Below, one piece after another: positions 29,540 to 55,352 of a DNA stretch of 64,000 bases (the stretch's first letter is position 1; every line of letters begins with the position of its first letter). Source of the stretch: Bacteroidota bacterium (GTDB taxonomy: Bacteria > Bacteroidota > Bacteroidia > Chitinophagales > BACL12); NCBI GenBank assembly GCA_029571985.1, contig JAKQVC010000058.1, forward strand, positions 9,150 through 73,149. Direction: 5' to 3'. Under the pieces are notes generated by a model, which had not been told where the DNA came from, ran no database searches, and saw only the letters and a list, made by a program, of their open reading frames with translations. A program made the translations under genes and the position numbers.

Positions 29540-30301
29540 ATGAAATTAAATTATAAAGTCTTAGGTGAGGGGAGTCCTGTCGTAATTCTGCATGGCTTAT
29601 TTGGCATGCTCGATAATTGGATAACTTTTGGAAGAGCGCTTTCAGCCAACTATAAGGTGTTTCTTGTCGACCAGCGCAATCATGGCAATTCGCCCCACTC
29701 GGAAGCGCATAGTTATACCTTAATGGCTGAGGATTTATTAGCGTTTTGTGAAGAGCATCAATTGCAAAAAATCACATTAATTGGTCATTCCATGGGTGCT
29801 AAAACGGCTATGCGGTTTGCACTCGACAACCCGGAAAGAGTGGCTAACTTAATTGTAATTGATATGGGCGTGCAGCAATATACAGGTGGGCATGAAACCA
29901 TATTCAGGGCATTGCGGACACTTGATCTGGAGTCTGTTACATCGCGCAAAGAAGCCGAATTTGCACTTACAGAATTAATTCCTGAACCGGGTGTAAGACA
30001 GTTTTTATTAAAAAATTTGCATCGGACAGAGGACAACACCTACGAATGGAAGTTTAATCTGGAGGCTTTATATCAACATTATGCTGAAACCTTATCCGGC
30101 ATAACAGCATCCGAACCGTACTATGGAAAAGTAACCTGCATCAGAGGCGGAAATTCAGGCTATGTGCAGGATGCAGATTGGGATGCATTCACGGCAATTT
30201 TCCCGAATGCACAATTATTTACTGTTCCGGATGCTGGTCATTGGGTGCATGCAGATCAACCGGAAGCATTGTTGACTTTGGTTGAAAAGATAATAGCATA
30301 A
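29540..30301 (+). CDS. alpha/beta-fold hydrolase (YbfF-like esterase)
   Basis: HGLFG oxyanion region, the GHSMG nucleophile elbow and a C-terminal GHW.H. Confidence 0.8.
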   Translation: MKLNYKVLGEGSPVVILHGLFGMLDNWITFGRALSANYKVFLVDQRNHGNSPHSEAHSYTLMAEDLLAFCEEHQLQKITLIGHSMGAKTAMRFALDNPERVANLIVIDMGVQQYTGGHETIFRALRTLDLESVTSRKEAEFALTELIPEPGVRQFLLKNLHRTEDNTYEWKFNLEALYQHYAETLSGITASEPYYGKVTCIRGGNSGYVQDADWDAFTAIFPNAQLFTVPDAGHWVHADQPEALLTLVEKIIA

Positions 30302-30330
30302 AAAAAGACTGCGATAAGCAGTCTTTTTTA
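30301..30330. terminator. bidirectional hairpin terminator between convergent genes
   Basis: An A-run, the stem AGACTGC / GCAGTCT (30306-30312 and 30318-30324), then a T-run. It lies between the hydrolase stop and the hppD stop. Confidence 0.6.
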
Positions 30331-30347
30331 TATTGTCTTAAAAAGAA

Positions 30348-31475
30348 TTACAAGGTTCCCCTTAATTCCTGTTCGCGTTCGATAGCTTCAAATAAAGCTT
30401 TGAAATTGCCTTTTCCGAAACTACGCGCGCCGTGTCGTTGGATAATTTCATAGAATACTGTCGGACGATCCTCTACCGGCTTGGTAAACAATTGCAGCAG
30501 GTAACCTTCCTCATCGCGATCTATGAGAATATTGAGTTTTTTTAATGCTTCAAAGTCTTCATCAATATGACCAACGCGATCCAAAACATCTTCATAGTAG
30601 GTTTCAGGCACATATAAAAATTCAACACCACGAGCGCGTAACTCCGTTACCGTTTCGATAATGTTGTCAGTTGCAATAGCAATATGTTGCACACCGGCAC
30701 CTTTATAAAAATCGATATATTCTTCGATTTGTGATTTTTTCTTTCCTTCAGCAGGCTCGTTAATCGGAAACTTCACAAATCCGTTGCCATTACTCACCAC
30801 CTTGCTCATCAGGGCTGAATATTCTGTTGAAATATCCTTGTCATCAAAAGTAATCAGTAACTGAAAGCCCATTACCTGCTCGTAAAATTTCACCCATTCA
30901 TTCATTTGTCCGAGCTCTACATTGCCAACACAGTGGTCAACATACTTGAGGCCGATTGGCTTAACCGGCACGTTTGATTTTTTTGGTGCAAAACCAGGTA
31001 AAAATGCTCCGGTATAATTTTTCCTTTCTACGAATTTATGTATGGTTTCGCCATAGGTTTGAATAGCTGAAATAACTACCTCGCCATGCTCATCCTGCAT
31101 ACGTGTTGGGGCGATTACACTTTTAGCACCACGTTTAATGGTTTCTTCATAGCTTTTGGTAGCATCGTCAACCCACAAGGCTAACACCTTTACCCCATCA
31201 CCATGTTTACGCACGTGTTGTGAAATATCACTCTCCGGGTCGAACGAGGTGGTAAGTACCAAACGAATTTTGCCTTGTTGCAACACATAGCTAGCACGAT
31301 CCTTAATACCGGTTTCCAATCCGGCATAAGCCACTAATTCATAACCCCACGCCGACTGATAATAATAAGCCGACTGCTTTGCATTACCCACATAAAATTC
31401 AATATGATCCGTACCATTCAAAGGCAAAAAATCGGTCACAATTTGAGGATTAGATGTTAAGGTTGATTGTTCCAT
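30348..31475 (-). CDS. hppD: 4-hydroxyphenylpyruvate dioxygenase
   Basis: Two VOC domains, GVQHIA, IDRDE.GYLLQ.FT and FFE.IQR.G..GFG.GNF.ALF..IE..Q motifs. Confidence 0.95.
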   Translation of the reverse strand: MEQSTLTSNPQIVTDFLPLNGTDHIEFYVGNAKQSAYYYQSAWGYELVAYAGLETGIKDRASYVLQQGKIRLVLTTSFDPESDISQHVRKHGDGVKVLALWVDDATKSYEETIKRGAKSVIAPTRMQDEHGEVVISAIQTYGETIHKFVERKNYTGAFLPGFAPKKSNVPVKPIGLKYVDHCVGNVELGQMNEWVKFYEQVMGFQLLITFDDKDISTEYSALMSKVVSNGNGFVKFPINEPAEGKKKSQIEEYIDFYKGAGVQHIAIATDNIIETVTELRARGVEFLYVPETYYEDVLDRVGHIDEDFEALKKLNILIDRDEEGYLLQLFTKPVEDRPTVFYEIIQRHGARSFGKGNFKALFEAIEREQELRGTL

Positions 31476-31545
31476 GATTTGTATTGTTATCCTGATTAAG
31501 AATTTGATTTAATTGATGATATTAAACGGTTGAAAGTGGCCTTTT

Positions 31546-31577
31546 ATTAGCCGATTAGCCAATTAGCCGATTAGCCG
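31546..31577 (+). repeat. tandem octamer array (ATTAGCCG x4, one A variant)
   Basis: The direct reading is ATTAGCCG ATTAGCCA ATTAGCCG ATTAGCCG, about 70 bp upstream of the hppD start codon. Confidence 0.9.
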
Positions 31578-31686
31578 TCTTTTTTATTCACTATTTGTGC
31601 CAATTATGTGCATTGATTTTTTTAAAGTATTTATGTGTAACTCAAATTATTTTATAATGATTTCTTTGTTGAACTTATAATGATGT

Positions 31687-32007
31687 TTAGAATTTTTCGA
31701 TTGATAATGCTTGTGATTCCAAATGTTCCGCATTCGGATAATTCACTGAAGCTCTGCATAACCTAATCCAATAGATGGTTTCTTCTGCTTCCTTGCCGGC
31801 GATTTTCATTTTGTGTATGAAATCAAGTTTGCTTTCCGCATTTTGTGCCTCGTGTACAAGTGCGCCTATACTTGTGCCGGAGCGCCATAATTGTCTGGAC
31901 ATCAGAAAAAGCCTTTGTGATTCTAACAATGAACAATAGGTCATTACATCAACTGAAAAAGCAAAGGTCAGTTCTAAAATCAAGTTGCCCTTTTTGTATT
32001 TACTCAT
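31687..32007 (-). CDS. four-helix-bundle protein (23S rRNA intervening-sequence protein family; same family I recall for DGR Avd proteins)
   Basis: L..Q..RS..SI.A...EA......DF..K..IA.KEA.ET.YW..L signature. I prefer the ATG at 32007 (MSKYKKGN) to the listed 32034. Confidence 0.8.
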   Translation of the reverse strand: MSKYKKGNLILELTFAFSVDVMTYCSLLESQRLFLMSRQLWRSGTSIGALVHEAQNAESKLDFIHKMKIAGKEAEETIYWIRLCRASVNYPNAEHLESQALSIEKF

Positions 32008-32167
32008 GGTCAGCAAATAATTTGCACGCAACAATTGAAGTGCATATGTTAATATTTGCCTAAATATATGAGTTCAAAAACAGGATACTTAAATACTTAA
32101 ATGTTTCAAACGCAAATCATAAGTAAAGAACAACCAAATAAACTAATAACCAGTAAACCGTAAGCGC

Positions 32168-32303
32168 TTAAATATAAATTTATCTTCCCACTAAATTTTT
32201 TTACCAAACCCATCACCCCCCTAATCACCCAATCCTCAATCCTCAATCCTCAATCCTCCCTAATCATCAAATCCCCCAATCAACTAATCGGCTAATCCTC
32301 CAA
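32168..32303 (+). repeat. G-free low-complexity tract with an AATCCTC x4 heptamer array and an inverted GATTAGCC octamer
   Basis: There is no G on the + strand from 32168 to 32289. AATCCTC x4 lies at 32231-32258. AATCGGCTAATC (reverse complement GATTAGCCGATT) lies at 32286-32297 and abuts the hmgA stop codon. Confidence 0.9.
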
Positions 32304-33461
32304 TCAGCTGAGCCACGACAAATAATATTCCTTATCCTCAATCTCCAAAGCATCTTCTGTCAGTTGCAAAGGTTTGAATGGGTCTATCATTACGGCTAAT
32401 TCTTTTGTTTCTGTTTTGCCGATGGAGCCTTCATAGGTGCCGGGGTGCGGACCATGAGGGATTCCTCCGGGATGTAAGGTGATTTGTCCGCGCTCAACAC
32501 TTTTTCTGCTCATAAAATCACCATCCACGTAATACAATATTTCATCCGAATCGATATTACTGTGATTGTATGGCGCAGGAATAGCAAGTGGATGATAATC
32601 ATACATACGCGGTACAAAACTGCATACCACAAAATTTCGCGCTTCAAAAGTTTGATGCACCGGTGGTGGTTGATGCACTCTTCCGGTGATGGGTTCGAAA
32701 TTGTGTATACTAAATGCCCATGGATAAACATATCCATCCCAACCAATTAAATCGAATGGATGATTGGCATAATGGTACGGATAGATAATACCCTGCTTTT
32801 TTATCTTGAAGTAATAATCACCAACCTCATCGTACGTTTTCAGATTTTCCGGAACTTTAATGTCACGCTCACAAAAAGGCGCATGTTCCATTAACTGACC
32901 TACTTTGTTCATGTAGCGTTTTGGAAATTCGATAGGTGAAAACGATTCAACTATCAAAAGGCGATTGTTTTCCGTTTCAAAATGTATCTGATAAATCGTT
33001 CCACGCGGAACCACTACATAATCTCCGTATTCAAATGCAATTTCGCCGTAGGCACTTAATAATTTACCCTTTCCTTCGTGAATGAAAATCATTTCATCTG
33101 CATCCACGTTCTTATAGAAGTAATCCGTCATGCTCTTTCTCGGAGCAGCTAACGAAATGTGTAAATCGCTATTCACCAACACCGCCTTGCGACTTTCCAG
33201 AAAATCATCCGCAGGCGCAATCTTGAACCCTTTCAGCGAGCGGTGCTTGAGCTGTCGGCTTAATACAACCTTTGGTTCAACACTGTAAGCTTCTCCAACC
33301 TGTTTAATTTTAGTTGGCGGATACAGGTGATACAATAATGAATAGGTATTACTGAATCCTTCGGTAGAAAACAGTTCTTCGTGATATAACGAGCCGTCTG
33401 GCTTACGGTACTGGGTATGCCTCTTCTGCGGCACCTGCCCCCTTAAGCAATAAAATGGCAT
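32304..33461 (-). CDS. hmgA: homogentisate 1,2-dioxygenase
   Basis: 385-aa Bacteroidota-type HGD. It sits next to hppD in the same pathway, with GEAYSVEP, IHEGKG and TLHP.G.PHGPHPG motifs. Confidence 0.9.
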   Translation of the reverse strand: MPFYCLRGQVPQKRHTQYRKPDGSLYHEELFSTEGFSNTYSLLYHLYPPTKIKQVGEAYSVEPKVVLSRQLKHRSLKGFKIAPADDFLESRKAVLVNSDLHISLAAPRKSMTDYFYKNVDADEMIFIHEGKGKLLSAYGEIAFEYGDYVVVPRGTIYQIHFETENNRLLIVESFSPIEFPKRYMNKVGQLMEHAPFCERDIKVPENLKTYDEVGDYYFKIKKQGIIYPYHYANHPFDLIGWDGYVYPWAFSIHNFEPITGRVHQPPPVHQTFEARNFVVCSFVPRMYDYHPLAIPAPYNHSNIDSDEILYYVDGDFMSRKSVERGQITLHPGGIPHGPHPGTYEGSIGKTETKELAVMIDPFKPLQLTEDALEIEDKEYYLSWLS

Positions 33462-33559
33462 AGTAGTCCTTTTAAGTATGCACTACAAAGGTAACAAAAA
33501 CCCACCCTGTAAAGAGTGACTTTTATCAATACCAGGTGCAAAACGGCAAACCTGTTGAT

Positions 33560-34744
33560 TTACAGGCCTCTGCGCTTAATTTCCTTGTGTATAAGCGATA
33601 ATTCCCTGCTCATTTGACCACTCACGGATTTATTCTCCTGAGCACGGCGAATCAGGTAAGGTATAACATCCTTCACCGGTCCGTAAGGGAGGTATTTGGC
33701 CACGTTAAATCCGCCTTTCGCCAAATTATAAGTAATTTGATCACTCATGCCATACAGTTGCGAGAACCAAAAATGTGGATGATTAGCCGGAATTCCCCGT
33801 TCTTGCATCGTTGTAGCAAGTTGCATGCTGCTGTCTTCATTATGTGTAGCTGCACAAACCGCAACATTATGCATATTGTCTAAACACAATTGAATGGCAA
33901 GATTATAATCCCGGTCAGTTGCTGCTTTATTGGGTTGAATCGGATCGGTATAGCCTAATTCAGTTGCCCGTTTCCTCTCCTTATCCATATAAGCGCCACG
34001 CACCGGTTTTAACCCCAAAATATAGCCATGCGATTGTGCGTCTGCTAACGAACGCTGACAAAATGCAAGCCTGTCGTGGCGATACATTTGTGGCGTGCTA
34101 TACACAACCGCTTTTTGTTTATTGAAGGTGCGCATAAGCTCGAAGGTCAGGTTGTCAATTGCATCCTGAATCCAGCTCTCTTCAGCATCTACAAACAATC
34201 CTACGCCATTATCCGCAGCGGCTTGTGCAATGGCAAACATGCGTGTGTAGAGTGCCTCTTTTTCAGTCTGCTCAGCTGCTGAAAGGGCACTTCCCGTATT
34301 GAGTTTTTCTAATAAGGCAAATGAAGTTAAACCCGTTACCTTACAACTGATAAATGGAATATTTTTCTTGCCTGCGGCGAATTGTAAAATATGAATTAAC
34401 TCGTTTTTGGTACGTTCAAATTCTGCTTCAGACTCCTTCCCCTCAACCCCATAGTCAATGATGGCACTAATGCCGAATTTTTCCAGCTCGGCCAGCACTT
34501 TTTTGGTTTCCTCCAGGGTTTCACCGCCACAAAATTGCTCATATACCGTTTTCTTAATCAACCATTTCACCGGTAAATGCATCTTAATGGATAAGGATGC
34601 CATCGTAGTGAGTACATTGGTTAAAACAGGGTGATTCATCATCCTGAACAACTGGTATTCCCATTTTAAGGCTTTATCGGTCCGGCCTGAAAATGCAGTG
34701 GCCGTATCATTGAAGTCAACACGAGGTGCGGGTTCCAAAATCAA
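33560..34744 (-). CDS. proline dehydrogenase family protein
   Basis: F.DT..AF...TD..L.....LF, FCGGE., DAEESW.QDA and Q.YR.D motifs of monofunctional PRODH. Confidence 0.85.
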   Translation of the reverse strand: MILEPAPRVDFNDTATAFSGRTDKALKWEYQLFRMMNHPVLTNVLTTMASLSIKMHLPVKWLIKKTVYEQFCGGETLEETKKVLAELEKFGISAIIDYGVEGKESEAEFERTKNELIHILQFAAGKKNIPFISCKVTGLTSFALLEKLNTGSALSAAEQTEKEALYTRMFAIAQAAADNGVGLFVDAEESWIQDAIDNLTFELMRTFNKQKAVVYSTPQMYRHDRLAFCQRSLADAQSHGYILGLKPVRGAYMDKERKRATELGYTDPIQPNKAATDRDYNLAIQLCLDNMHNVAVCAATHNEDSSMQLATTMQERGIPANHPHFWFSQLYGMSDQITYNLAKGGFNVAKYLPYGPVKDVIPYLIRRAQENKSVSGQMSRELSLIHKEIKRRGL

Positions 34745-42507: not shown

Positions 42508-42755
42508 AAGACTCGGGACACCACTGCCCTCTGCCGGCCAATCATCTACCACATTTTCACACTTTCACACGCTCACATTTGCATTCCATCCCGAGTACTC
42601 GGGACTCCGCTGCGCTACGTCGGCTAATCATCCAATCGGCTAATCCCGAGTACTCGGGACTCCGCTACGCTGCGTCGGCTAATCATCCAATCGGCTAATC
42701 ATCCAATCGGCTAATCGGCTAATCGGCTAATTGGCTAATCGGCTAATCGGCTAAT
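42508..42755 (+). repeat. composite intergenic repeat: CACAnnTT octamers, two 55-bp units each with a perfect 16-bp palindrome, then 10 tandem CGGCTAAT/CATCCAAT octamers
   Basis: TCCCGAGTACTCGGGA occurs at 42589-42604 and 42644-42659, with a half copy ACTCGGGAC at 42511-42519. The octamer array spans 42676-42755. Confidence 0.9.
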
Positions 42756-42815
42756 CCCCCTCTTCCCAACATAACGTATTACTCCGTATTTTCGCACCAT
42801 AATACTCTAGACTGT

Positions 42816-48187: not shown

Positions 48188-48315
48188 TGTGTTCAGGTGT
48201 TCATGTGTTCATGTTCAAAACCCAACTCCACTCACCACTCACCACTCACCACTCACCACTCACCACTCACCACTCACCTTATTCCTCATTCCTCATTCCT
48301 CATTCCTCATTCCTA
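48188..48315 (+). repeat. three consecutive short tandem repeat arrays filling the smpB/pcm convergent spacer
   Basis: kGTGTTCA x3.5 lies at 48188-48217, CCACTCA x7 at 48228-48276 and ATTCCTC x4 plus a degenerate copy at 48281-48315. The + strand has no G for about 120 nt. Confidence 0.95.
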
Positions 48316-48319
48316 CCAA

Positions 48320-48988
48320 TCACTCCACTTTCCCTGGCAACATAGGCACAAACCTGAAATTATCCCCTACTTCTTTTCGAAAATCACCACCACTGGTTTT
48401 GGTGAGTTTAATCATGAGTTGATCATCTCCCGTACCTAATGGTAACACAATGATACCTCCTGGGCGCAATTGTTTGAGCAGCGCCTGCGGAATTTCTTTA
48501 GCTGCAGCTGTTATAATAATTCTGTCGAAAGGAGCCAATTCCGGCAAACCGGCATAACCATCTCCAAAAAAAGTGTGTATACGTTGATAGCCCAATAAAT
48601 CAAGTTGCTTCCGCGAGGTGTCATGTAATTTTTTAAAACGTTCAATAGAATACACCTCAGCCCCCATTTCTGCCAGCACACATGCCTGATATCCCGAGCC
48701 TGTGCCCACTTCCAGCACCCGCATCCCGGACTCCAGCTCAAGCCATTCGCTCATATAAGCAACCGTATAGGGCTGACTAATCGTTTGACCCTCACCAATT
48801 TGAAAAGCTTTGTCTTCATAAGCATGCCCGAGAAATGCCGGATCCATAAATGTATGTCTCGGTATGCGATTAATGGCTGTTAATACCCGCTCATCGCTAA
48901 TACCTTTACTTCTCAGCAGTTCTACCAACTCCTGCCGCATTCCCTTGTGCCTGTATGTGTCTATTCCCGGATGCATCAACGTGTGCAA
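48320..48988 (-). CDS. pcm: protein-L-isoaspartate O-methyltransferase
   Basis: TISQPY.VA.M, the SAM-binding motif VLE.GTGSGYQ and R.HTF.GDG..G. The true start may be the ATG at 48976. Confidence 0.9.
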   Translation of the reverse strand: MHTLMHPGIDTYRHKGMRQELVELLRSKGISDERVLTAINRIPRHTFMDPAFLGHAYEDKAFQIGEGQTISQPYTVAYMSEWLELESGMRVLEVGTGSGYQACVLAEMGAEVYSIERFKKLHDTSRKQLDLLGYQRIHTFFGDGYAGLPELAPFDRIIITAAAKEIPQALLKQLRPGGIIVLPLGTGDDQLMIKLTKTSGGDFRKEVGDNFRFVPMLPGKVE

Positions 48989-54719: not shown

Positions 54720-55125
54720 CAAACACCTCAATACAAGCCTCATCGAAGCAGCACACCCGCTAACTCTACAAAATAAACAAGCCTCATCGCGGCTGCACAC
54801 TCATAACCCAACCTAATCAGGTCGACACACCCACTATCTCCACAAAATAAAAATATACAAGCCTCATCTCTACAACATACTCATTACTCAGCCCCATAAA
54901 AACGACACACCCGTTAACACCTCAAAATAAAAATTACACCAGCCCCATCGGGTCGACACTCCCATTAACACCCCAAAATAAAAATTACACCAACCCCATC
55001 GGGTCGACACGCCCATTAACACCCCAAAATAAAAATTACACCAGCCCCATTGGGGCGACACACCCACTAACCCCCCAAAGTAAACCACATACAAGCCCCA
55101 TCGGGGCGGCACAACGTCCAATCTA
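54720..55125 (-). repeat. about 8 tandem copies (51-bp period; three near-identical) of the same hairpin head in the opposite orientation, with a different tail
   Basis: CGACAC recurs on the + strand at 54903, 54954, 55005 and 55056 (CGGCAC at 55107). The minus-strand unit is GTGTCGACCCGATGGGGCTGGTGTAATTTTTATTTTGGGGTGTTAATGGG. Older copies from 54735 to 54900 are degenerate. Confidence 0.9.
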
Positions 55126-55223
55126 TAACAACCCAGCCAATCGCAAACAATGACCTGCACCACGCCAAAAAGTAAAATCTCTTCCAAGCAAAAAAATCCA
55201 CCTCATAACAAACCTTTAGTCTT

Positions 55224-55300
55224 CATTCCTAATTCCTCCCTCCTCCCTCCTCCCTCCTCATTCCTCATTCCTTATTCCTCATTCCTCATTCCTCCCCCCC
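55224..55300 (+). repeat. 11 tandem heptamers (nnnTCCT: CATTCCT / CCCTCCT) ending in a C8 run
   Basis: The units read CATTCCT AATTCCT CCCTCCT x3 CATTCCT x2 TATTCCT CATTCCT x2 CCCCCCC. The tract from 55220 to 55305 is G-free and ends about 55 bp upstream of rnpB. Confidence 0.95.
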
Positions 55301-55352
55301 CAATTGCTTTTTCCCCGATTTCCGGTAATTTTATACCCGCCGTTCTTTAGAA

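Follow-up and report, generated by a model that had tools for sequence, protein, structure and literature searches.

The spacer between an hmgA-like gene and hppD in a Bacteroidota genome very probably holds a derived cassette, in which a gene for a four-helix-bundle (4HB) protein is enclosed by hairpin-forming repeat arms and which belongs to a widespread class. On balance we favor a more specific account, namely an IVS-type hairpin cassette whose insertion site would be bounded by the hmgA stop codon and the hppD start codon and that would combine RNA looping with a protein-repeat role. The locus links two decades-old puzzles, the role of the IVS protein (PF05635, S23p), whose family was originally discovered in intervening sequences (IVS) of ribosomal RNA, and the reason for intergenic heptamer and octamer arrays. 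All coordinates refer to the window, by which we mean the whole stretch of 64,000 nucleotides that was analyzed.

Exactly one PF05635/TIGR02436 gene lies in the 828 bp (31476-32303) that separate the hmgA-like gene from hppD, and all three genes are encoded on the minus strand. This agrees with an earlier note on the same DNA, which had described a 106-residue four-helix-bundle gene as the only gene of the spacer and as lying on the same strand as its neighbors. The features of the locus, in plus-strand order, are the following.

30348-31475, minus strand: hppD (4-hydroxyphenylpyruvate dioxygenase), the downstream host gene (TIGR01263, 458 bits, cut-off 277, E=2.7e-137)
31546-31577, minus strand: 3' arm, CGGCTAAT x4 on the coding strand, which is ATTAGCCG x4 on the plus strand (TRF period 8, 4.0 copies)
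31687-32010, minus strand: 4HB gene with an ATG start, 106 aa beyond the start codon (PF05635 and TIGR02436 profiles)
32167-32289, minus strand: tract of 123 nt that is C-free on the coding strand (G-free on the plus strand), the longest such run in the window
32230-32258, minus strand: GGATTGA x4 heptamers, CAATCCT on the plus strand (TRF period 7, 4.1 copies, 100% matches)
32258-32305, minus strand: 5' arm of six degenerate octamers, GATTNNNN, read from the sequence; the first unit starts within the hmgA stop codon
32278-32304, minus strand: 5' strand of the predicted closing stem, which pairs with 31546-31572
32304-33461, minus strand: hmgA-like gene (homogentisate 1,2-dioxygenase-like), the upstream host gene (PF20510 HgmA_N; orthologues adjoin hppD in relatives)

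The 4HB gene belongs to both families, with 57.8 bits against PF05635 (cut-off 33.8, E=1.4e-15) and 67.1 bits against TIGR02436 (cut-off 24, E=1.4e-18), consistent with the link to the Avd/23S-IVS protein family that had previously been suggested for it. No other Pfam or NCBIfam family exceeds its cut-off in the cassette, including those of HUH/Y1 (IS200/IS605-like) transposases. Residues 6-98 of the product resemble PDB 2RLD, an entry of five chains, by sequence similarity only (E=3.7e-18), and this resemblance would suit the four-helix-bundle fold and pentameric ring that characterize the family. Within the family the gene falls into a subfamily that we call J (QNAES...DFIHKMK). The two host genes had been named as the tyrosine-catabolism pair hmgA and hppD, which holds for hppD, a clear TIGR01263 equivalog, but only loosely for its partner. 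The upstream gene, whose TGA stop codon lies at 32304-32306, passes the PF20510 HgmA_N profile (39.5 bits, cut-off 20.2) and falls far under the cut-off of the NCBIfam hmgA equivalog TIGR01015 (49 vs 511 bits); we therefore class it as homogentisate-dioxygenase-like and divergent. Neither a reverse transcriptase nor another part of a diversity-generating retroelement (DGR) adjoins the 4HB gene, the neighbors being hmgA, hppD, proline dehydrogenase and a hydrolase. Among the PADLOC anti-phage defense models none matched the 4HB gene at E<=0.01, and a search with Rfam over 30000-34000 returned no rRNA and nothing inside the cassette, its sole match being a sub-threshold ctRNA at the 3' end of hppD.

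The gene is flanked by arrays of octamers in opposite orientation. On the left flank an octamer repeated four times had been noted, and TRF finds ATTAGCCG x4 at that place. Between this 3' arm and the hppD start codon lie 70 nt, and reverse-complementing the unit of the arm gives the best unit of the 5' arm. The inverted octamer that had been read on the right flank's minus strand is likewise present (GATTAGCCGATT, 32286-32297). The six-octamer 5' array as such was absent from the earlier description; its units read, in order on the coding strand, GATTGGAG GATTAGCC GATTAGTT GATTGGGG GATTTGAT GATTAGGG and agree with the consensus R-A-T-K-W-G-M-N of the J subfamily. The heptamers, given as AATCCTC x4, are confirmed as perfect repeats, for which TRF gives the unit CAATCCT in 4.1 copies. 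The G-free run, given as 122 nt reaching the hmgA stop codon, measures 123 nt and ends 14 nt short of it. This run spans most of the 5' arm as well as the G-rich stretch after the 5' arm. The GGATTGA heptamers have no partner in the 3' flank and look like decay or slippage inside the 5' arm. Across the window GATTAGCC occurs in 18 copies vs 1.7 expected, nine of which lie in a second array (42622-42756).

Overall, this copy looks like a cassette in early decay, with an imperfect 27-position stem, a C-depleted 5' arm and a truncated C-terminus. Nearly all C's are gone from the 5' arm, which has also gained the unpaired heptamer tract. In an alignment with relatives the 4HB protein lacks the last ~12 residues, a KIIxSSKK tail, and the profile match runs on beyond two in-frame TAA codons; the helical core of the protein is intact.

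We compared hppD neighborhoods from 40 relatives. In other families with adjacent hmgA and hppD genes no 4HB gene lies between the two, and outside the window's genus the junctions without it have gaps of 14-90 bp, save for L025 (286 bp) and L032 (671 bp), the latter from another family and holding an unrelated ORF. Within the same family the gene is absent from five of seven genomes of other genera, four of these having gaps of 16-44 bp and the fifth a gap of 286 bp. Within the window's own genus the gene occupies the junction in 10 of 12 genomes; one of the two others has a clean junction of 63 bp, and the other has 137 bp in which AATGTRC units are left. A search for empty sites in related genomes had been suggested in the earlier note, and such sites thus exist in other families, in other genera and in two genomes of the same genus, from which it follows that the insert is derived.

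Every filled junction (13/13) carries a 5' array at the stop codon, matched by a complementary array on the 3' side. The 5' arrays start with TGATTAGCC..., TAATGTGC... or TAATGTACC..., and the 3' array ends shortly before the hppD start codon. Together with the empty sites, these arms uphold the description of the spacer as an inserted cassette with inverted ends rather than a normal operon spacer. The arm units differ by host clade (ATTAGCC, AATGTGC, AGTGTGG and AATGTACC), the two arms of a junction always match each other, and in one genome two unit types are nested in mirrored order. Because complementarity is kept while the unit changes, these data argue for pairing or arm-to-arm correction over a fixed transposase-binding end. 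The junction 4HB proteins, all of type J, form a distinct subfamily on a long branch with 100% support. They share 43-74% identity with the protein of the window, as compared with 75-98% identity to the window's own hppD and hmgA in genomes of this family. Arm type tracks the hppD tree, on which a single old gain followed by six losses is about as parsimonious as multiple independent gains, either history taking about six events. The 4HB tree is only weakly incongruent with the hppD tree.

The same layout surrounds many relatives of the gene at other loci of the order. We scored the inverted alignment of both flanks for 100 TIGR02436 genes from 41 Chitinophagales genomes, using as control the upstream flank of one locus paired with the downstream flank of another (95th percentile, 28). 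Scores of at least 40 were obtained for 63 of the 100 genes and scores above the control percentile for 78. The window copy is among the weaker examples: its score of 27 is about the 95th percentile of the controls. That value, inside the upper range of the controls, would suit an alternative in which the 4HB gene is either ancestral to the operon or otherwise an unremarkable part of it, or regulates tyrosine catabolism specifically, and stands by chance amid simple repeats that are so abundant in this genome (378 arrays of period 7 or 8) that any spacer may hold some. We consider this extremely improbable. Outgroup junctions are tight and gene-less, the 13 filled junctions all have complementary arms, as do 63-78% of the 100 paralogues when measured against cross-locus and direct-orientation controls, and the J subfamily occurs in unrelated contexts across Bacteroidota and is therefore not tied to tyrosine catabolism.

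The genome from which the window derives (G000; 4.0 Mb, 42% G+C, 282 contigs), which has Chitinophagales MAGs as its nearest named relatives, contains 233 period-7 arrays and 145 period-8 arrays, in a handful of unit families. The ATTAGCCG family comprises 29 arrays, and the octamer is thus a genome-wide repeat, shared beyond the hmgA-hppD locus. Taken by itself, this abundance would make the flanks look like mere background repeats. Five TIGR02436 genes are present, four of them bracketed by arrays with reverse-complementary units. The unit pairs are GGTAGTG/CACTACC, GTGAGTG/CACTCAC, GTGTCGAC/GTCGACAC and ATTAGCCG/CGGCTAAT, each different from the others. The fifth copy is truncated and lies on a 1.8-kb contig beside an ORF that, judged by eye, resembles an IS3-type transposase. 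Shared flanks at other 4HB genes of this genome had been proposed as a check, and the outcome favors the cassette reading: three of the four other genes repeat the inverted-array layout, each with a unit of its own rather than with GATTAGCC. Where inverted pairs of same-unit arrays less than 800 bp apart enclose an ORF of more than 100 aa, which is the case three times in this genome, the ORF is a 4HB gene every time (3/3). About ten gene-less hairpins with GTAGTGA x4 arms and loops of ~102 bp were found as well, and they have the extended termini ...GACAATGCA in common with the 4HB cassette C269. A cognate 4HB gene can be assigned to four of the seven commonest array families of G000, which is not significant alone (chance about 0.23) because those families hold 69% of the arrays.

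Elsewhere, gene and arms have been duplicated as one unit. In G017 the copies L089 and L093 share 97.5% protein identity and 91% DNA identity over 592 bp, and their homology sets in at the upstream stop codon and stops where the 3' array does; the flanks on either side are unrelated. The duplication is not recent (dS 0.45), and dN/dS between the two is 0.02; other 4HB pairs gave values of 0.06-0.15. The 4HB protein is thus under purifying selection (dN/dS 0.02-0.15). Neither the borders of the G017 duplicates nor the comparison of filled with empty junctions revealed a target-site duplication, no transposase was found in or beside the cassettes, and no recent movement of the cassette was seen. 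Taken together, gene and repeats look like one semi-mobile system. With regard to orientation, among 96 loci the 4HB gene is co-directional with both neighbors at 68, whereas it is antisense to both at only 7. Inverted arms are alike from either strand, so an element defined by its ends would be expected in either orientation, and the co-orientation points to a constraint at the level of the transcript.

Several of these observations could also be read at the level of DNA. In this alternative, the cassette would be a MITE-like element whose arrays serve as terminal inverted repeats, or as hairpin or cruciform sites, for an enzyme encoded elsewhere, with the 4HB gene as cargo or accessory and the RNA stem as incidental. 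The gene-less hairpins of G000, which pair GTAGTGA x4 arms with the GACAATGCA termini of a cassette, would then be its gene-less counterparts, and duplication of a whole cassette to an unrelated site as well as the occurrence of both filled and empty sites would follow naturally; Ralph and McClelland have moreover proposed that IVSs are mobile elements, as cited in PMC4990558. Such an element should, however, be accompanied by target-site duplications or a transposase, and neither was seen, nor does any gene of the cassette belong to a transposase family. A single sequence-specific enzyme could not easily account for arm units that vary within one genome and among close relatives, the orientation bias of 68 vs 7 is unexpected for symmetrical ends, and in G000 the 4HB gene is the only gene of more than 100 aa enclosed by close array pairs. 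We therefore judge a purely DNA-level element to be unlikely.

We found no terminator-like site in the spacer. The Bacteroidota -7 motif TAnnTTTG is not enriched 5' of 4HB genes (178 loci, with 32 occurrences upstream and 21 downstream), and the gene in the window lacks it upstream. A sigma-70 scan yielded fewer matches than shuffles did. Co-orientation, the missing terminator and the lack of motif enrichment make read-through from the upstream gene the likeliest source of 4HB mRNA, and in the window the gene would accordingly be read from hmgA.

In such an RNA the two arms could pair. Aligning the 5' flank with the reverse-complemented 3' flank gives a closing stem of 27 positions, made up of 21 Watson-Crick pairs, 4 G-U pairs and 2 mismatches. 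Folding the 841-nt spacer RNA recovers this stem in the minimum-energy structure as well as in the centroid. The fold of the whole spacer is no stabler than that of shuffles (z = -0.47), and only the closing stem is informative. Corresponding stems in relatives have 21-39 Watson-Crick pairs. By predicted pairing, the locus thus has terminal inverted repeats with a stem around an ORF, as an IVS does. Across loci, arm mismatches are more often compatible with G-U pairing in the sense than in the antisense strand (146 vs 105, p=0.011), which we keep as weak evidence because a C-to-T bias of the non-template strand predicts the same result. The energy of the arm duplex was also considered as evidence for RNA and discarded: the sense duplex is the stabler one at 68 of the 95 loci with arms, but it is so at 34 of the 54 without arms too, and the asymmetry is therefore compositional. 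The genome encodes RNase III (TIGR02191, 176.6 bits), and by analogy with known IVSs the arm stem is a likely substrate for it. Arm complementarity could also be preserved without selection, by template-switch correction of quasi-palindromes. It is conceivable, if somewhat short of probable, that the cassette works through the RNA stem and RNase III.

To relate the arms to the arrays elsewhere in each genome, dimers of three junction units were counted per genome of the genus, with other families of the order alongside.

G000: arms ATTAGCC; dimers of ATTAGCY 85, ATGTGC 1, ATGTACC 2
G006: arms ATTAGCC; dimers of ATTAGCY 44, ATGTGC 25, ATGTACC 0
G009, G010 and G013: arms AATGTGC; dimers of ATTAGCY 8-47, ATGTGC 57-110, ATGTACC not compared
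G014, G007 and G002: arms AATGTACC; dimers of ATTAGCY 0-2, ATGTGC 0, ATGTACC 28-49
Nine other families of the order (G025-G033): arms of none of these three types; all three dimers about 0

Within the genus, the arm unit thus matches whichever octamer arrays the genome concerned has in abundance. Of the genomes with an empty junction and no J-type gene, G008 has none of the three array families, yet G004 has 27 ATTAGCY dimers and a remnant at the junction. A dispersed repeat that co-varies with the flanks of a gene is what characterizes REPIN/RAYT-type systems, and the pattern seen here, which amounts to about four independent contrasts, is of this kind. It is predicted by a partnership between protein and repeat, and shared descent of gene and arms explains part of it. 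Beyond the order, at least 569 Bacteroidota stretches encode J-type relatives, with armed cassettes among others in Rufibacter sediminis, Pedobacter ureilyticus and Flectobacillus rivi, and 80 of these loci were examined. Where an upstream array was present, the arms had period 8 in 46 of 56 cases, with the consensus R-A-T-K-W-G-M-N (position 2 is A in 95%, position 3 is T in 97% and position 6 is G in 84%). The arms of the main 4HB subfamily mostly have period 7. We rate it as rather doubtful that the 4HB protein itself reads the arrays.

The link between host clade and arm type, as in vertical descent, would also be expected if the cassette had been adopted by its host as operon punctuation, stabilizing or processing mRNA in the manner of REP/BIME elements, with the 4HB protein as a host RNA-binding factor that some of the hairpins encode by chance and no mobility today. 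G-rich arrays past stop codons and complementary arrays before start codons are general in this genome and, according to PMC4692102, in Xanthomonas, and the strong purifying selection on the 4HB protein would suit a host function. Such a function is difficult to square with a junction that is filled or empty within single genera, with duplication of gene and arms into an unrelated site, and with relatives that thrive without the cassette while the copy in the window decays. We regard punctuation of this kind as quite improbable.

The IVS-type cassette that we favor can be laid out as a series of steps. A PF05635 gene and two complementary 8-nt arrays would have inserted in an ancestor of this Chitinophagales lineage, and the cassette would thereafter have passed down by descent, with losses in some lineages and perhaps exchange. 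In read-through RNA from hmgA, the arms would pair, loop out the cassette and bring the hmgA end and the hppD start together again, as the arms of a 23S rRNA IVS do, and RNase III would cut the stem. The 4HB protein would bind the repeat arrays and aid their upkeep or spread, much like a RAYT with its REPINs and without a known transposase. A broader proposal, which we put forward tentatively and hold to be rather unlikely as it stands, is that PF05635 proteins in general are trans-acting partners of intergenic 7-8-nt arrays, with one unit class per paralogue (R-A-T-K-W-G-M-N for J), and that 23S IVSs are copies that landed in rRNA. Each 4HB protein, a non-transposase relative of Avd, would then be encoded within a hairpin of its own repeats and would maintain or spread gene-less arrays of the same unit across the genome, in parallel to REPIN/RAYT, and the arms would loop the insert out of the operon mRNA and so keep it from doing harm.

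The genus offers a natural experiment, in which the same junction is filled, empty or marked by remnants and in which the arms shift with the array families of the genome. If the link between protein and arrays is true, it gives both orphans a testable function, namely the binding of repeats by the protein and the processing of operon transcripts by RNase III, and defines a widespread class of inserts within operons that apparently does not break them. For annotation, such spacers should not be taken as operon breaks, nor their genes as regulators of the neighboring pathway.

The literature searched contains no account of 4HB genes in array hairpins outside rRNA, and the closest known system is the ORF-bearing 23S rRNA IVS of Coxiella burnetii and Leptospira (PMC4990558). 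There too, a PF05635/S23p gene lies in the loop of a stem, in sense orientation within a transcribed unit. The Coxiella ORF sits in the loop of a stem formed by 28-bp terminal inverted repeats, by tandem heptamers, and RNase III excises the IVS, for which a past as a mobile element is a suspicion of long standing (PMC4990558). Tandem heptamers beside the ORF and a proposed mobility, present or past, are thus further points in common. In contrast to these IVSs, the cassette described here occupies the spacer of two protein-coding genes rather than helix 25 or 45 of 23S rRNA, its arms are tandem arrays of 7-8 nt that vary between relatives rather than a fixed 28-bp stem, and its ORF is under purifying selection, whereas that of Coxiella is decaying. 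Excision by RNase III is demonstrated for IVSs and only presumed here.

A second parallel is found in repeat-associated transposase genes. RAYT genes, which encode HUH/Y1 transposases, are flanked by inverted short repeats (REP/REPIN), and the same repeat is dispersed through the genome in gene-less form. The REP/BIME elements of E. coli and other enterobacteria are intercistronic and stabilize or process mRNA. As in these systems, the 4HB gene has inverted repeat flanks, gene-less copies are dispersed and the elements lie between co-directional genes, and as in REPIN/RAYT the repeat family shifts between genomes together with the flanks of the gene. Unlike a RAYT, the 4HB protein has no known catalytic motif and is not an HUH/Y1 transposase, and the repeats are tandem arrays rather than single palindromes. 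The Avd accessory proteins of DGRs have a related four-helix-bundle fold and belong to a related family, and a DGR review reportedly names PF05635. Unlike Avd in its DGR setting, the 4HB gene has no reverse transcriptase, template repeat or variable repeat near it and is adjoined by hmgA and hppD.

Finally, the arrays themselves resemble the G-rich heptamer intergenic repeats of Xanthomonas (GGGAATC) and Nostoc. According to PMC4692102, the Xanthomonas arrays lie sense and G-rich within 50 bp past stop codons or antisense just 5' of start codons, mostly between co-directional genes, form 70-75 convergent pairs and vary in length among relatives. Arrays of period 7, their position at stops and starts, their setting mostly between co-directional genes, their convergent pairs and their variation in length among relatives recur here. 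The units at this junction differ from those heptamers in being octamers of the R-A-T-K-W-G-M-N type, and a link to a gene family, absent from the passages of PMC4692102 consulted, is what sets the present arrays apart: where such pairs surround a gene, it is a 4HB gene.

In one relative (locus L010, G010:C3) the spacer between hmgA and hppD has, in place of the 3' arm, a C-rich stretch of low complexity that is about 500 nt long (spacer positions ~640-1150). This stretch includes long runs of C and T, and it may have arisen during assembly or stem from an insertion of its own. The corresponding spacer from another family of the order (L032, G036:C1) is 671 bp long and carries an unrelated open reading frame, vWA-like by eye, with no four-helix-bundle (4HB) gene; the arrays are likewise absent from this spacer. 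The genome of the window also encodes a second hppD paralogue (contig C36, 10469-11566; 66% identical), and such a pair of hppD genes is present in most genomes of the window's genus.

4HB genes are also found in tandem or in local clusters, as in the related genomes G034 and G002, and the window's own genome (G000) contains a fifth, truncated gene:

G034:C1:4046553-4048294, two 4HB copies (L071, L051) with 1.4 kb between them
G002:C2:770526-790006, four 4HB copies inside 20 kb
G000 C266 (L004), 202-483, fifth 4HB gene, N-terminus missing, matching the profile at positions 15-107 only

The truncated gene lies on a 1.8-kb contig, where the adjoining reading frame on the opposite strand is IS3-type OrfA-like by eye, and it is probably a copy broken by an insertion sequence.

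Further repeats occur elsewhere in the window:

42588-42756, TCGGCTAA x10 array along with two copies of a 55-nt unit
48214-48335, another long G-free tract (122 nt), CCACTCA x7 then CCTCATT x5
54770-55305, cluster of tandem repeats with units of 80 nt and 51 nt, then TCATTCC x10 and an 86-nt G-free run

The octamer of the first array is identical to the unit of the cassette's 3' arm, and a small palindrome, CCCGAGTACTCGGG, lies inside the 55-nt unit. This array is a member without a gene of a set of mosaic repeats spread genome-wide.

G000 further contains a family of MITE-like hairpins without a gene, among others at:

C128:1638-1794
C222:1062-1446
C279:37651-37807
C98:3668-3838
C103:55832-55988

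In these hairpins a conserved loop of ~102 bp is enclosed between the arm GGTAGTGAGTAGTGGGTAGTGAGTAGTGAGACAATGCA and its complement, often with AAGGAAT/AATGAGG arrays after the element. Their termini are shared with the armed 4HB cassette on contig C269.
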